Shown here piece by piece: positions 44,938-51,065 of a DNA stretch of 64,000 nt. Position numbers and translations under genes: made by a program. Every line of letters begins with the position of its first letter. Position 1 is the first letter of the stretch. The notes beneath the pieces are model-generated. The model searched no databases. It had not been told where the DNA came from and saw only the letters and a list, made by a program, of their open reading frames with translations. The stretch comes from an uncultured Acidobacteriota bacterium (GTDB lineage: Bacteria > Acidobacteriota > Thermoanaerobaculia > Gp7-AA8). Location of the stretch: assembly GCA_963741955.1 (NCBI GenBank), contig CAVUKB010000004.1, forward strand, positions 608,001 through 672,000, read 5' to 3'.

Positions 44938-46016
44938 ACAGCGGAACCGACAGGGGCGACGATCTCGGCCGTTTTGCGCGGCGCGTCGCGGTCGTGGCTC
45001 TCTTCGTGATCGGGCTCCTCTTTCTCTGGGCAGTCCGCAACGTTCTGGTGCTGATTTTCATCTCCGCGGCGATCGCGGCCGGAATCGCGCCGACCGTCCG
45101 CCGGGTGCGAGCGCGGGTGCGGGCTTTCACCGGGAGACGGATCAACAGGGGCACCGCGGTGCTCCTGGTGTACTTTCCTTTCCTCCTCATCGCAGTGCTG
45201 TTCGCGGTTCTGATCGTTCCGCAGATGCTGGTGCAATCGAGGGGGCTGATCCAGGAGCTTCCGACGGTGATCGACCAGCGGATCATCACGCCGATCGAGA
45301 AGTTCGTTCCGATCCGGGAGATCGTCGCGAACGTCGATCTCGGCTCGGTCTCGAAGAATGCGCCGGTCTTCGGGTACGTGAAGGGGGCGGCGACGGGGCT
45401 CGCGTCGATCATCGCCATTCTCTTCCTGGTCTTCTACATGTTGATCGATGCCCCGCGGTTGGGGAGTCTGCTTCTCCTGCTGTTTCCGGAAGAACACCGC
45501 GCCATGTGGCAGCGGATGATCACCAGGATGGCGAAGCGGATGAGTTACTGGCTTTCCGGGCAGCTGATCCTCGCCATCACGGTCGCGGGCCTGATGTTCG
45601 TGACGCTACTCGCTCTGAGGGTTCCGTTCGCCGTCCCTCTCGCGTTCATTGCGGGGGTGGGCGAGCTGGTCCCGGTGATCGGGCCGATCATCGGCACCAC
45701 CCCGGCGATGATCGTGGCCCTGATGCAGTCGTCGTGGCAGTTCTGGTCCGCACTGCTGGTGGTGATCCTGATCCAGCAGCTCGAGAACCACATCCTCGCA
45801 CCGAGAATCCTCGGGTCGAAAGTGTCGGTCTCTCCTCTGACGGTGTTCATCGCGTTCATGATGGGGGCGGCGTTGCTCGGAATCGTCGGAGCGGTGATGG
45901 CGATTCCGGTGGCCGCGATCGCACAGGTCGCATTCGAAGAGGTGTTTCTTTCGCGGCGCGAGCGGAGAACGGACGGACGCCGGAAGGCGAGTCTGCTCTC
46001 GCGCCGGCGTGGATGA
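44934..46016 (+). CDS. AI-2E family transporter
   Basis: WLSGQ, VPVIGP, QQLENHILAPRI, GIVGAVMAIP; GTGA overlap with trxC. Confidence 0.9.
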   Translation: MNSGTDRGDDLGRFARRVAVVALFVIGLLFLWAVRNVLVLIFISAAIAAGIAPTVRRVRARVRAFTGRRINRGTAVLLVYFPFLLIAVLFAVLIVPQMLVQSRGLIQELPTVIDQRIITPIEKFVPIREIVANVDLGSVSKNAPVFGYVKGAATGLASIIAILFLVFYMLIDAPRLGSLLLLLFPEEHRAMWQRMITRMAKRMSYWLSGQLILAITVAGLMFVTLLALRVPFAVPLAFIAGVGELVPVIGPIIGTTPAMIVALMQSSWQFWSALLVVILIQQLENHILAPRILGSKVSVSPLTVFIAFMMGAALLGIVGAVMAIPVAAIAQVAFEEVFLSRRERRTDGRRKASLLSRRRG

Positions 46017-46125
46017 GAGTGGATGAGATGCGGTCTGGACCTTGCACTTTTGAGGTGAGCTCCGTGCCTGCCGGACCTCTCGTCCGGCGCCGATTCTCCC
46101 GGCGCGGGGAAGGAGGCAATCCGAC

Positions 46126-46362
46126 ATGAGAAACGAAATGATCGGCGCGGTGGTGCGCCGCGCGCTCGAGCATCCTGAGTTTCGTCGTCATCTGCTGGCC
46201 GATCCGGAAGTGGCGCTCTCGCAGCATGGTTTCGCGCTCGAGAGCAACGAGATGGACGAGATCCGCCGGATACGAGGTGAGATGATGCGGCACGAGTCGC
46301 AGGACGTGGAGCAGCGGCTCCGTTCGATCGCAGAGGAGTACGGAGTGCGACCAGGGTCGTAG
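46126..46362 (+). CDS. Small NHLP-clan (nitrile hydratase leader-like) protein
   Basis: AVVRRALEHPEFRRHLLADPEVAL..HGFAL..E; AAGGAGG RBS. Confidence 0.7.
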   Translation: MRNEMIGAVVRRALEHPEFRRHLLADPEVALSQHGFALESNEMDEIRRIRGEMMRHESQDVEQRLRSIAEEYGVRPGS

Positions 46363-46640
46363 CCCGGCCCATGGGTTGGACGTCCCGTCCGATGCAGGGC
46401 GGCCCAGTGGGTTGGACGTCCCGTCCGATGCAGGGCGGCCCAGTGGGTTGGACGTCCCGTCCGATGCAGGGCGGCGTCCCGCGCCGCCCTGTCCGGTGCG
46501 AAATGCGAAGATCGTCCCGAGAGTCGAGAGACGAACGGACCGCATCGCGAGAGGTACGATCCGCGTTTGGTTGCCGCCATCGCTCCCCGGCAGGATGCCG
46601 GGGAGCCCTGGAGTTTGGCGTTTCTCGAGCAAGGCGCGAG

Positions 46641-48053
46641 CTACGAAGTGGCGTACTGGACAGCCATTTCGGGGGTGACAGCGGATTTCGAGCGCTTCAG
46701 GTGTCGTGCGACGGGGGTCTGGAAGTCGGTGAAATTGGGGGGTTCGAAGTTGCGGATGTGGCGAATGCAGGCGGATCGCATCGCGCGAAGGTACTGGCCG
46801 GTGGGTATTCGCCACTGATCGGGGATATCGTTGTCTCTCCACTTGGGCATCAGTTCGGGGGGCGCAGTGGAGCCGAGGCCGAAGCAATCGGCGGCAGCGA
46901 GGAGCATCATCGAGTAGACGGCTACGGCGAAAGCGGGCAGCGAGTCGACCGATCGCCGGTTGCGCACCTGCGCCTGGCCGACACCGAAGATCTGCTTTTC
47001 GTCGCGGTGATTGACCTCGATATCCCAGCGGCGGAAGTAGGCTTGGACGAGCTCGACGAGCGAGAGTTTCAGGTCGGTACAGATCAGGAACGCCGGTTTG
47101 CGATACAGCAGGCGTGATTTCTTGCGGAGCCGATAGCCCAGTGGCCGGATCACGACGAGCCGCAGAGGCAGTTCATAACCCGAAGTTTTCCAAAGCACGG
47201 GACCGATGGTCTTGATCGAACAGGCGTGTTCACGACCCGAGGCCCAGACTTGGACCTGTTGCCAGTCGATGGATTGGTCCACGCGGAGTTGATCGGGTGT
47301 TGGGGCCTGATCGCCATACCAGCGCTTGCGTCCGCGAAGCGGTTGAGAGTTTGGAGGAAAGAACAGCTTCGCGTCGCCTCGGATGCGACCGATCAGGATC
47401 GTTCGTTCCGGCAAGTTCCGCAGAACCGTACGGTTGGTGTAACCGCCGTCAACCACCGGCATCAGCACGCGCTCGCTCGCTCCGAGCTGGTCAAAGTCCT
47501 TGCGAGTTTGGATCAGCAGACGCGTTGCACCGATGGAAAGATTCTGCTCTTTCTGCTGGCGACGATACTCGGCACGTTCCTGCTCGGTTGCTCCGGCCCC
47601 CGGGCGAACCGCCGGAGGCTGGTGATTGAACCGGATCGGGAAGCTGCGCGCCGGACCGGCAGACTGGCCAGTTAAAGGAACACTGATCGCAGCCTGAATG
47701 AACCGTTGGGCGCGGATCAAGTTCGTGTGGAAAGGCGGCGACATCGGATCGCGCTGATAACTCACGCCTGGGATCTTCATGCCCGTCTTGCGCAACTTCG
47801 TGTCATCCAGCGGCAGCACCAGCGGTGCGTCGAGCGGCAAGTACGCGAGCAGGTGTCGTTCGATGACTCTGAACATCTCGCTCACATCGAACCGACCCTC
47901 CGAGAAAACGCGATAGTCTGCCGACCAGTCCTGCTGCGGATCGCGGCCTGCTTCAATCATTCCGCTTACCGTGTGTCGCCCGGTGCAGTTGAGCAGGCCG
48001 ATGGCCAACCCACGAACCCGCTGAAGCACCCGAGCATCACAGGATCCATTCAA
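46641..48053 (-). CDS. DDE transposase (IS701/IS4-like)
   Basis: LDDTKLRK, VVDGGY, YFRRWDIEVNHRDEK; frame open upstream through the A9 run; only a weak TTG start. Confidence 0.9.
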   Translation of the reverse strand: MNGSCDARVLQRVRGLAIGLLNCTGRHTVSGMIEAGRDPQQDWSADYRVFSEGRFDVSEMFRVIERHLLAYLPLDAPLVLPLDDTKLRKTGMKIPGVSYQRDPMSPPFHTNLIRAQRFIQAAISVPLTGQSAGPARSFPIRFNHQPPAVRPGAGATEQERAEYRRQQKEQNLSIGATRLLIQTRKDFDQLGASERVLMPVVDGGYTNRTVLRNLPERTILIGRIRGDAKLFFPPNSQPLRGRKRWYGDQAPTPDQLRVDQSIDWQQVQVWASGREHACSIKTIGPVLWKTSGYELPLRLVVIRPLGYRLRKKSRLLYRKPAFLICTDLKLSLVELVQAYFRRWDIEVNHRDEKQIFGVGQAQVRNRRSVDSLPAFAVAVYSMMLLAAADCFGLGSTAPPELMPKWRDNDIPDQWRIPTGQYLRAMRSACIRHIRNFEPPNFTDFQTPVARHLKRSKSAVTPEMAVQYATS

Positions 48054-48093
48054 TTCGTCGAAGATCGCGTTGAATGAGCGAAGAAGATTTCGA

Positions 48094-48303
48094 TCAGCGT
48101 TTTTTTTTGACCCGCTTCGCTTCGACGGTTCCGGTCGGATCCTTTGCCCGCTTGAGGATCAGCGTTCGCTTGTCCTCGATGACCCATTCGACGATCTCAC
48201 CGCGAATGAATTCACAAGCTTGGGCCACGGCCGCGGGAAGGTTCACGTACCACTGCCTGCTCTTTGCACGAGCGATCAGCTGCACTTTGGTTGGAAATCC
48301 CAT
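48094..48303 (-). CDS. Small AbrB/MazE/SpoVT-like DNA-binding protein inside the IS
   Basis: MGFPTKVQLI...QWYVNLPAAVAQACEF.RGE.VEW.IED...LILKR; AAGGAGG RBS. Confidence 0.75.
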   Translation of the reverse strand: MGFPTKVQLIARAKSRQWYVNLPAAVAQACEFIRGEIVEWVIEDKRTLILKRAKDPTGTVEAKRVKKKR

Positions 48304-48319
48304 GGTGACCTCCTTCTGG

Positions 48320-48337
48320 TCTAGTGATATAACTAGA
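48320..48337. promoter_or_regulatory. Palindrome just upstream of the IS ORF RBS (candidate operator)
   Basis: TCTAGTGATATAACTAGA. Confidence 0.4.
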
Positions 48338-49172
48338 TACCACGGGACGAAAAAAAAGTCCAGAATTCCTGGACTTCCGCCCAACGACTCCGAGTTCCGC
48401 CAAACTCCAGCGCTCCCCGGCAGGATGCCGGGGAGCCTCGCGCGAGACGCGCGACCCACGCGGCGCGACCCACAGGGCAGTGGGTTGGACGTCCCGTCCG
48501 ATGCAGGGTGGCCCAGTGGGTTGGACGTCCCGTCCGATGCAGGGCGGCGTCCCGCGCCGCCCTGTCCGGTGCGAAATGCGAAGATCGTCCCGAGAGTCGA
48601 GAGACGAACGGACCGCGGCGCGAGAGGCGGGATCCGCGTTTGGTTGCCGCCATCGCTCCCCGGCAGGATGCCGGGGAGCCTCGCGCGAGACGCGCGACCC
48701 ACGCGGCGCGACCCACAGGGCAGTGGGTTGGACGTCCCGTCCGATGCAGGGTGGCCCAGTGGGTTGGACGTCCCGTCCGATGCAGGGCGGCGTCCCGCGC
48801 CGCCCTGTCCGGTGCGAGATACTCGGATTGTCCCGAGATAAGAGAAGAACGGACTACGGCGCGAGAGGCGGGATCCGCGTTTGATTGCCGCCATCGCTCC
48901 CCGGCAGGATGCCGGGGAGCCTCGCGCGAGACGCGCGACCCACTGACGCGCGACCCACCGGACGCGCGACCCACTCGGCGCGCGACCGACGCGGCAGATG
49001 CGAGGATCGTCCCGAGAGAAGAGCCGAACGCCCCGATCTCCCATCCCTCCGAAACCTCTTCGCGACTCCATCGTCTTCAAGTAGAGGAATTTGTCTGATA
49101 ATGGTCCGGTTCGATTCGGCTGGTGCGGCAGCATCGGACGACAATCCCATATCAATCCGAGGTGACAACCTG

Positions 49173-51065
49173 ATGGCTTCACCTGCACGCCGGCTGGGGA
49201 GACGATTCGCACTCATCGCTCCAGTCCTTCTCCTGGCGCTTTCGACGACTGCTTACGCATATCCGACCGCTCGGACCCAGACCCACATGGTCTACGACGC
49301 GGCGGAGGGAAACATTCTCCTCTTCGGTGGGGTGACCGGGACCGACTCGGGCAACAAGAGAGTCTTCCTCAACGACACCTGGGAGTGGAACGGGAAACGG
49401 TGGATCGAGGTTCGACCGGCTCACCAGCCGAGTGGCCGTTCCGCCGGCGGGATGATCTACGACTCGAACCACGATGACGCGGTCCTCTTCGGCGGCTTCG
49501 ACGGCACAAACTACCTGAACGACACCTGGTTCTTCGTCGACGGTGACTGGCAGCGGCAGTCGACGGCCGATGCTCCGACGCCGCGGCGTCTGTTCGGGAT
49601 GACCTACGATCCGGTCATGGACCGGACCTTCGTCTTCGGCGGATCGAACGCGACCGCAAATCTCTACGATACGTGGACGTTCGACGGAACCACGTGGACC
49701 AGAGTCAACGAGACCGGGCCTTCGGTGAACACTCCGTTCCTGGTGTACGACGCGGCGCGGGATCAGGTTCTCCTGATCGGGCAGACTGCGGAAGCGGTGA
49801 CTCAGATGTACCGCTGGAGCAGCGATCACTGGGAGCAGCTGACGCCGGACACACTTCCCACCTGCATCAACTCGACTTCGATCGTCTACGAGCCGAACAA
49901 CCAGAAGGTCCTGATGGTCGGCGGCTTCTGTTCGAACGCCTTCCCGAGCAGCGACTCGTGGGAGTGGGATGGCACCAACTGGACGAAGCTGACCACCAGC
50001 CCTCCGATCGGATTTCTCTACGGAGAGGCGATGGCCTACGACCCGAATCGGGAAGAAGTCATCGTGTTCGGCGGAATCGATTCCCTCACCCGGAACGAAA
50101 CCTATCGCTACCGGGATCTGAAGTTCACCCAGGCCTCCGACACGTTCACTCCGGGGCCCCGCTCACTTCCGGTGATGGCGACGGATCCCGAGAGCGGCAC
50201 CATCTGGATGTACGGGGGACACAACGTCCGGCGGGACTTCTTCGATCTCTGGCGCTACTCGAGCGGCCGCTGGGTGAGGGTCAACGCGTCGAACACCCCG
50301 GTCTGTACCTATGGGGCGGGGACGTGGGATCCCAGCCGCAAGAAGATGGTTCTCCTCTGTGAGGATTCGACGACCTACGAATGGGACGGATCGAGCTGGA
50401 AAGCATTTCCCGATCTGAAAAATCTCCCACCCGGCCGTCGATTCAGCTCTCTGGCCTACGATCCGGCGCTGAAGAAGGTTCTTCTCTTCGGCGGCTGGGA
50501 GACGATCAACCGGTACCTGAACGACATCTGGGAGTGGGACGGCACGAACTGGACGAAGGTCGACCGGAAGGGGAGTGCTCCCGATCCGCGATCTTCCGCC
50601 GCATTCTTCTGGGATCCTTCGACCCAGAAGATGATGGTGTTCGGTGGAATCGGACGGCCGACGCAGGAGGACAGCGCCCGCCGCTACGGCGACATGTTCA
50701 GCTGGGACGGCTCGCGATGGAACGAGGTGAAGCCCTCCACCGCGCCTTCGATCCGCTACGCGATGACGACCGGCACGGATCCGCTCACGGGACAGCCGAT
50801 GATCTTCGGCGGGAAAGACCAGAACGAGAACTACCTCGCCGAGCAGTGGAGCTGGGATGGCTCGAAGTGGCTGAAGGTCGAGCCGGGTCAGCATCCGGAG
50901 GCTCGTATCAACAGTGCGATGACCATCGATCCCATCACTGGTGACCTGACCCTCTACGGCGGATACGACGGCCGTTACTTTCAGGATACGTGGACCTGGG
51001 ACGGTACGAACTGGACCCTCGTTCCGGTTCCTCCCGGGAAGCAGCGCGGAATCGGGTTTCCGTAA
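49173..51065 (+). CDS. Secreted kelch-repeat beta-propeller protein
   Basis: Signal peptide; about 12 repeats of YD...LFGG...DTWEWDG..W. Confidence 0.85.
   Translation: MASPARRLGRRFALIAPVLLLALSTTAYAYPTARTQTHMVYDAAEGNILLFGGVTGTDSGNKRVFLNDTWEWNGKRWIEVRPAHQPSGRSAGGMIYDSNHDDAVLFGGFDGTNYLNDTWFFVDGDWQRQSTADAPTPRRLFGMTYDPVMDRTFVFGGSNATANLYDTWTFDGTTWTRVNETGPSVNTPFLVYDAARDQVLLIGQTAEAVTQMYRWSSDHWEQLTPDTLPTCINSTSIVYEPNNQKVLMVGGFCSNAFPSSDSWEWDGTNWTKLTTSPPIGFLYGEAMAYDPNREEVIVFGGIDSLTRNETYRYRDLKFTQASDTFTPGPRSLPVMATDPESGTIWMYGGHNVRRDFFDLWRYSSGRWVRVNASNTPVCTYGAGTWDPSRKKMVLLCEDSTTYEWDGSSWKAFPDLKNLPPGRRFSSLAYDPALKKVLLFGGWETINRYLNDIWEWDGTNWTKVDRKGSAPDPRSSAAFFWDPSTQKMMVFGGIGRPTQEDSARRYGDMFSWDGSRWNEVKPSTAPSIRYAMTTGTDPLTGQPMIFGGKDQNENYLAEQWSWDGSKWLKVEPGQHPEARINSAMTIDPITGDLTLYGGYDGRYFQDTWTWDGTNWTLVPVPPGKQRGIGFP

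Follow-up and report, generated by a model that had tools for sequence, protein, structure and literature searches.

Target choice by DDE transposases is usually explained by short sequence preferences, by the bendability of the DNA or by accessory proteins, and the length of the target duplication is treated as a fixed constant of a family, given by the spacing of the two active sites. Tn5, for example, duplicates 9 bp of ordinary duplex. Long duplications are known for IS1634/IS1549 and for IS1202 (~27 bp), staggered attack at both ends of a repeat is known for CRISPR Cas1-Cas2, and symmetric nicking of four-way junctions is known for the junction-resolving nucleases. To our knowledge, none of these systems gives duplications equal to arbitrary hairpins. 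Hairpins do serve as targets of two kinds of described insertion sequence (IS) elements. IS1272 and TnSha1 (IS1182 family) of staphylococci insert into hairpins, or inverted repeats, of unrelated sequence, which are often terminators, according to the passages cited (PMC4923244, PMC5678879); in the TnSha1/IS1272 insertions described there, a portion of the hairpin is lost and no duplication is made (PMC4923244). A hypothetical “pathway b” of a cruciform model, in which the 5' feet are attacked and the whole stem-loop is duplicated, appears in the legend of Fig. 13 of PMC5678879, whose authors argue in the cited text that IS1272 attacks the 3' feet, deleting the stem-loop. According to the same text (PMC5678879), Siguier et al. 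(2015) mentioned palindromes as targets of some IS1182 members, “without detailed data”. Elements that target repetitive extragenic palindromes (REPs), namely ISPsy8, ISPa11, ISPpu9/10, ISRm22, IS1397 and IS621, lie in intergenic REPs; the cited part of PMC1525189 describes the REP as split at a fixed position, a conserved REP sequence as needed and direct repeats of 0–6 bp, and mentions no duplication of a whole hairpin. Herein, we describe an insertion sequence flanked on both sides by a complete hairpin. It lies in a stretch of 64,000 nt, called the window below, from contig CAVUKB010000004.1 (positions 608,001 to 672,000) of an uncultured Acidobacteriota bacterium (assembly GCA_963741955.1).

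The element occupies positions 46608–48410 of the window (1803 bp), with its genes on the minus strand. Its ends form a perfect 13-bp inverted repeat, CTGGAGTTTGGCG, which stands at 46608–46620, the end distal to the transposase start, and as its reverse complement at 48398–48410, the end next to the first open reading frame (ORF1). Both ends are directly adjoined by a copy of the same 27-mer, on the left at 46581–46607 and on the right at 48411–48437. The 27-mer occurred exactly four times in the window, while 0 occurrences were expected from 100 shuffles. The other two copies, at 48654–48680 in the next repeat unit and at 48895–48921, are unoccupied and served as empty-site controls, since each is a single hairpin between the same flanks. 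When folded, the 27-mer forms a complete hairpin (-15 kcal/mol as DNA, z = -6.4), whose 11-bp stem closes a loop of 3 nt and leaves a single nucleotide unpaired on either side. The original prediction, made from the window alone, had claimed an IS with a 27-bp target duplication equal to one complete REP hairpin, and uninterrupted units at 48654 and 48895 with a single hairpin in the same flanks; both claims were confirmed.

The hairpin was also traced beyond the window. Its 25-bp core had 106 exact copies genome-wide, 77 of them on contig C5; no two copies were less than 60 bp apart, and the commonest contexts of the core had identical flanks. A Logan contig from a public soil run was exactly 1803 nt long and spanned 46608–48410, with a depth of 62.5 compared with ~10 for the flanks. 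Because the ends of this contig coincide with the assigned ends of the element, the hairpin lies outside the element. In a second soil run (X2), a contig reaching from the element end, at window position 48410, into another flank that resembles a hairpin marks one more site of insertion in a related population. The surroundings of the element (46362–46580 and 48411–49000) are a tandem array of ~241-bp units, each composed of the REP hairpin and two or three copies of a 33-bp repeat (GGGTTGGACGTCCCGTCCGATGCAGGG...).

The genome (5.44 Mb in 16 contigs) has five copies of the element, which are 100% identical across 1803 bp. All five are flanked by perfect direct repeats, of 20, 21, 24, 21 and 27 bp, and all of these repeats are hairpins, of four different sequences. 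Perfect hairpins with a stem of at least 8 bp and a loop of 2–5 nt number ~1670 in the 5.44-Mb genome; chance cannot account for all five insertions being flush with one. Three of the five copies lie outside REP arrays. The target of one of these three (L001) was terminator-like in a pattern scan, and that of another (L003) begins 6 nt past an ORF and has a four-T run behind it, as judged by eye. The copy at position 442453 of contig C5 and the window copy have one REP hairpin in common as their target but face opposite ways; the former has a 21-bp duplication, with cuts 2 bp inside the stem, whereas those of the window copy lie 1 nt outside. A search of this genome for miniature derivatives found none, the end motif being present solely at the five copies and in one chance match. 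When the right flank of L003 was compared with 30 relatives, all of other genera, the flanking gene had 70–75% identity and the intergenic DNA was not conserved.

Next, we turned to related elements in other genomes. Homologues of the transposase at E <= 1e-10 numbered 3376 among 8000 scored candidates and were mostly found on contigs of ~1.8 kb. The loci studied were the best 80 of 172 from a scan of one genome per species. The termini of this element group read CTGGAGTTTGG, and 58 of the 80 loci had a terminal motif resembling CTGGAGTTT at each end. Seven of the 58 were left out, with an element end at a contig edge or within 17 nt of one (L019, L023, L030, L053, L056, L065, L082). The analysed set comprised the remaining 51 related copies and the five copies described above, 56 in all. 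Element boundaries were ambiguous by 1 nt in L037 and L043, and doubtful in L066, where 8 of 14 end positions agree.

Exact direct repeats of 16–28 bp flanked 39 of the 56 copies (mean 21.4, standard deviation 2.6). Thirty-five of these repeats are hairpins with a perfect stem and four have one mismatch in the stem. The commonest lengths were 21 bp (nine copies) and 22 bp (seven), followed by 19 bp (five), 20 and 23 bp (four each), 18 bp (three), 24 and 28 bp (two each), and 16, 25 and 27 bp (one each). Two further copies (L012, L009) have repeats of 21–22 bp with one or two mismatches. The remaining 15 copies have unlike sequences at their two ends, and are taken up below. Of the 112 element ends, 102 adjoin a perfect stem of 6 bp or more whose start is 0–3 nt away, compared with 29 of 2160 control positions (1.3%) in the same loci. 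Of the ten ends that did not have such a stem, eight are palindromes with one mismatch (L033, L037, L039, L041). Hairpin duplications were found at all loci examined, down to ~39% identity. The check suggested in the original prediction, namely whether the duplications of other copies and homologues are hairpins of matching length, was thereby run and passed; the opposite outcome, short and non-palindromic duplications in other copies, is excluded by the five copies of this genome and by the relatives.

The 39 copies with exact repeats are spread over 14 assemblies, according to the record titles. These include Thermoanaerobaculia, other Acidobacteriota, Bryobacterales, Planctomycetota, Akkermansiaceae, Kiritimatiellales, Opitutales (one metagenome-assembled genome, MAG, with 16 different sites), a PVC-group bacterium, Nitrospirales, Chloroflexi and one unclassified bacterium, which we take to represent at least six phyla. 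Their targets have no sequence in common. At one extreme are GC-rich REPs, with -15 kcal/mol as DNA hairpins, and at the other is a 16-bp palindrome of A and T only (-0.9 kcal/mol); terminator-like hairpins, various types of REP and other palindromes are all represented. Some REP-like hairpins were used repeatedly: one family in an Acidobacteriota MAG (L011, L013, L014, L018, L012), and another case in the Opitutales MAG (L045, L046). Within each such family the duplication length was constant, 21 bp and 22 bp, and both orientations were seen.

To locate the cuts relative to the hairpins, the empty sites were reconstructed and the palindrome was measured around the centre of the duplication, with at most one internal mismatch allowed. 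The cut lay 1 nt outside the end of the stem (+1) in 25 of the 39 sites. It lay at the stem end in four sites and 2 nt outside in three, and inside the stem by 1 nt in five, by 2 nt in one and by 3 nt in one. When the duplication lengths were shuffled among sites of the same parity, the number of +1 sites averaged 10.4 and reached at most 22 in 20,000 permutations. Duplication length correlated with palindrome span (r = 0.77), which indicates that the length is set by the individual hairpin.

The transposase ORF (46641–48053, minus strand) encodes 470 aa from a TTG start. It barely passed the cut-off of the hidden Markov model (HMM) NF049999 (transpos_IS701_3; 171.9 bits, cut-off 170) and clearly that of PF13546 (DDE_5; 61.3 bits, cut-off 27). 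The IS4 HMMs stayed far below their cut-off (34.7 versus 250), the IS1634 model NF033559 matched weakly (15.1 bits versus a cut-off of 100), and no IS1182 model was among the 8 NCBIfam and 2 Pfam matches of the transposase. Residues Y339, R342, E346 and K353 form the complete IS4-type signature Y-(2)-R-(3)-E-(6)-K and are invariant in 21 aligned homologues. An AlphaFold model (predicted local distance difference test, pLDDT, 78.5) had as its best Foldseek match the Tn5 transposase 1muh (E 5.8e-9, template modelling (TM) score ~0.5, 13% identity); 1muh and four further Tn5 entries were matched at E 6e-9 to 3e-8 with a probability of 1.00. A profile of the transposase compared with PDB sequences found no solved relative by sequence.

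IS701 elements have a single ORF. They are 1400–1550 bp long, duplicate exactly 4 bp, and mostly have no Y in the YREK motif, as described in the cited part of PMC2266710, which gives a range of 7–13 bp for the duplications of the IS4 family. The clade described here resembles canonical IS701 in its matches to NF049999 and PF13546, but differs from it in a length of ~1.8 kb, two ORFs, the complete Y-R-E-K signature and hairpin duplications of 16–28 bp; the duplications were 16–28 bp long in 39 of 56 copies, and 20–27 bp long in all five copies of this genome, instead of 4 bp. With the IS4 family it shares the Y-(2)-R-(3)-E-(6)-K signature and the Tn5-like fold, but not the 7–13-bp duplication. 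Tn5/IS50 gave the best structural match, yet at only 13% identity and a TM score of ~0.5, and its target is ordinary duplex. In a plasmid collection, the closest elements were relatives of ~25% identity, on a Microvirga plasmid (L092) and a Rhizobium plasmid (L093), both alphaproteobacterial. Their termini are related (CTTGAGTTTGGCC / GCTTGACTTTG), but their direct repeats are 3–5 bp long and are not hairpins. Duplication of hairpins therefore characterizes a sub-clade, and the switch in the mode of target choice falls within one superfamily of ends, at some point between ~39% and ~25% identity to this transposase. No clade-specific insertion in the transposase was evident in comparison with a short-duplication relative, and a conserved RDP loop is common to both.

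The likeness to IS1272 lies in targets that are defined by structure and not by sequence. The polarity is opposite, with duplication of the hairpin here and removal or replacement of part of it in IS1272, and the transposases belong to unrelated families. The present clade thus looks like a natural case of the polarity drawn as “pathway b”, carried out by an unrelated family of transposases. The REP-specific elements differ in another way, since only two of the five copies in this genome lie in a REP, with differing cut positions, and the targets of the relatives have unrelated sequences. Full-text searches of the literature, which lay outside ISfinder, TnPedia and the reviews of Siguier et al., gave no report of an IS with duplication of a whole hairpin. 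The closest statements in print, as far as the cited passages go, are the hypothetical “pathway b” and the second-hand remark on IS1182 and palindromes.

Taken together, the element is probably an active IS of the IS4/IS701 type, with a DDE transposase of Tn5 fold and from a widespread clade, whose target is a small palindrome of ~16–34 bp chosen by its structure. A DDE transposase attaches the 3'-OH ends of its element to the two strands of the target at positions with a 5' stagger, and the stretch between them is duplicated when the gaps are repaired. As the duplication equals the hairpin plus 1 nt on each side, each strand would have one joint, at the 5' foot of the hairpin which that strand forms. 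Both 3'-OH ends would thus be joined to opposite strands at the 5' feet of the palindrome, mostly 1 nt outside the stem, and gap repair would copy the whole hairpin to both sides of an element moving by cut-and-paste; the resulting duplication, of 16–28 bp, tracks the palindrome at each site in its length. In geometric terms, the simplest fit would be an extruded cruciform, that is, a four-way junction, in which the attacked phosphates would lie ~2 bp apart across the junction, though they are ~21 bp (16–28 bp) apart in linear DNA. A further-reaching reading, to which we give about even chances, is that the clade (more than 3000 homologues in at least six phyla) consists of shape-reading integrases specific for four-way junctions, which would find or extrude cruciforms at any small palindrome. 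As part of the same reading, and just as evenly balanced, the element would be joined at the junction and each duplication would be a fossil record of a cruciform formed in vivo. The original prediction had proposed structure-directed targeting of REPs by attack at both bases of an extruded cruciform. Targeting by structure was borne out, and REPs as a specific class were not, any small palindrome being used; attack at the cruciform bases remains the simplest fit to the duplications, although the extrusion itself is beyond proof by sequence.

Several observations weigh against this account, and some of them suit a different one, in which B-form DNA is cut with a stagger of ~21 bp by a symmetric dimer of the transposase that simply prefers palindromic sequence, with no hairpin or cruciform formed. 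The lengths cluster near two helical turns (21.4 +/- 2.6 bp). They never exceed 28 bp, even though the longest palindrome, of 34 bp (L081), was cut 3 bp inside its stem to give this maximum. Two insertions into one REP hairpin gave different lengths, 21 and 27 bp. The variance in length is accounted for only partly by palindrome span (residual standard deviation 2.1, compared with 2.6), and 14 of the 39 cuts lie elsewhere than at +1. An upper length limit or a ruler component is therefore possible. A fixed spacing on B-form DNA as the whole explanation is, however, unlikely. The palindromes, from AT-only to GC-rich, offer no common sequence for a protein to read, the range of 16–28 bp exceeds one helical turn, and the cuts track the end of each stem, 25 of 39 at +1 being above all 20,000 permuted values. 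Moreover, a protein on B-form DNA would not sense palindromy without reading the bases, and the two feet would be ~2 bp apart in a cruciform; for these reasons, integration directed to a junction is favoured.

Stems of 7–9 bp are short for spontaneous extrusion from duplex, which is a further point against a cruciform; the enzyme or supercoiling would have to drive the extrusion. The same point would suit a hairpin in DNA that is transiently single-stranded, as at replication forks, within transcription bubbles or in the course of repair, with the second strand joined later or in a coupled step. Single-stranded hairpins are used by IS200/IS605 elements and by integron attC sites, and most of the targets found here are stable in this form (-4 to -15 kcal/mol, z -3.9 to -7.2). 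The AT-only target is barely stable, however, at -0.9 kcal/mol, and 73 of 200 shuffles folded as well. Both orientations were seen relative to the same REP hairpin, and duplication of a whole palindrome needs a joint on each strand, at opposite feet, which a junction would supply directly. We consider a single-stranded target rather improbable. Far less probable still, to the point of being negligible, is that the repeats are no target duplications and arose by recombination between array units, as a part of the element, or as palindromes made by the reaction itself in the manner of P nucleotides after hairpin opening. The window copy does lie inside a tandem array whose ~241-bp units each have a hairpin, and 15 of the 56 copies (L017, L020, L024–L026, L028, L029, L052, L054, L059, L063, L066, L068, L073, L080) have unlike flanks at their two ends, a perfect hairpin being present at both ends in 13 of them and at one end in two. 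These 15 copies also weigh against our account; as a conjecture, such ends would result from chimeric MAG contigs, or from inversions or deletions by recombination of one copy with another. Two of them, L028 and L029, have one flanking hairpin in common. An empty allele was not recovered, no contig being joined across the element in three public soil runs searched with window positions 45800–49300. Nevertheless, the five identical copies have four different flanking hairpins and three of them lie outside REP arrays, the inverted repeats are precisely where the contig from the assembly graph stops, the hairpin is found as a single, pre-existing unit (106 exact genome copies with no close pairs, and the units at 48654 and 48895 in the same flanks), and the same pattern recurs in 13 other assemblies. 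On this evidence all three variants were rejected, including recombination between array units, which the original prediction had named as an outcome that would overturn it and which insertions outside arrays and in other phyla exclude.

Upstream of the transposase lies ORF1 (48094–48303, minus strand), which encodes 69 aa plus a stop codon, is preceded by GGAGG and is conserved in relatives, where it is ~65–83 aa long and begins MGYPTKVQLI... Close to its end is a run of nine A (A9) at 48100–48108 (minus strand; T9 on the plus strand), a candidate site of programmed slippage to an ORF1-transposase fusion; the transposase frame is open upstream to ~48158, through this run. ORF1 of this type together with an A-run was found in 15 of 22 relatives examined, as A9 in 14 and as A8 in one (among them L006, L011, L019–L021, L023–L025, L030, L031, L049, L053, L064, L069). 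Of the 13 relatives that were read, some need a shift of +1 to enter the transposase frame, like the window element, and others one of -1. Since both shifts occur, transcriptional slippage fits better than ribosomal frameshifting. L069, the relative with A8, has a single fused ORF of 549 aa, and L064 has an ORF of 577 aa. These patterns suggest that programmed transcriptional slippage at A9 would produce an ORF1-transposase fusion; A9 runs are used for orfA-orfB fusion in IS elements, according to the cited part of PMC1088944. The ORF1 product may be AbrB/MazE/SpoVT-like, as Atlas feature scores of 0.94–0.96 and a predicted strand-strand-helix-strand-strand pattern agree. Its AlphaFold model is of low confidence (pLDDT 57.7), and ORF1 had no Foldseek match in the PDB at E <= 0.001, no match in Pfam, and a best E of 0.6 in a profile search of PDB sequences.

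Just inside the ORF1-proximal end, 33–67 nt from it, lies a terminator-like hairpin with a T-run in the sense of the genes (~48344–48378, minus strand; coordinates transferred from L003 and L001). It may block read-through from outside and so shield the transposase. A second subgroup of elements, with the same hairpin duplications, has the termini CTGGAGTTTGGACAT or CTGGAGTTTCTACAT, no A-run and another upstream gene, encoding a HARE-HTH protein (PF05066) of 112–129 aa (L055, L059, L071, L072, L073, L075, L083). Five of five such proteins tested matched PF05066 (E 1.7e-8 to 1.2e-4), three of them above the curated cut-off.

In this clade, duplication length varies between 16 and 28 bp, following the secondary structure of the target itself. 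This makes the question of whether a transposase can read DNA shape alone directly testable, the expected duplication being the palindrome plus 2. Together with IS1272, the clade suggests that hairpin targeting arose with opposite polarity, duplication and deletion, in two unrelated transposase families. Because an intact terminator or REP hairpin is kept on each side of the element, insertion is likely to be harmless, which is a possible explanation of how IS elements multiply in compact genomes with little damage. If the clade indeed consists of junction-specific integrases, the element would be nearly neutral to terminators and REPs, the hairpin being restored on both sides. Non-B DNA could then naturally be probed with such an enzyme, which would also be a tool for sequence-independent, structure-guided insertion.

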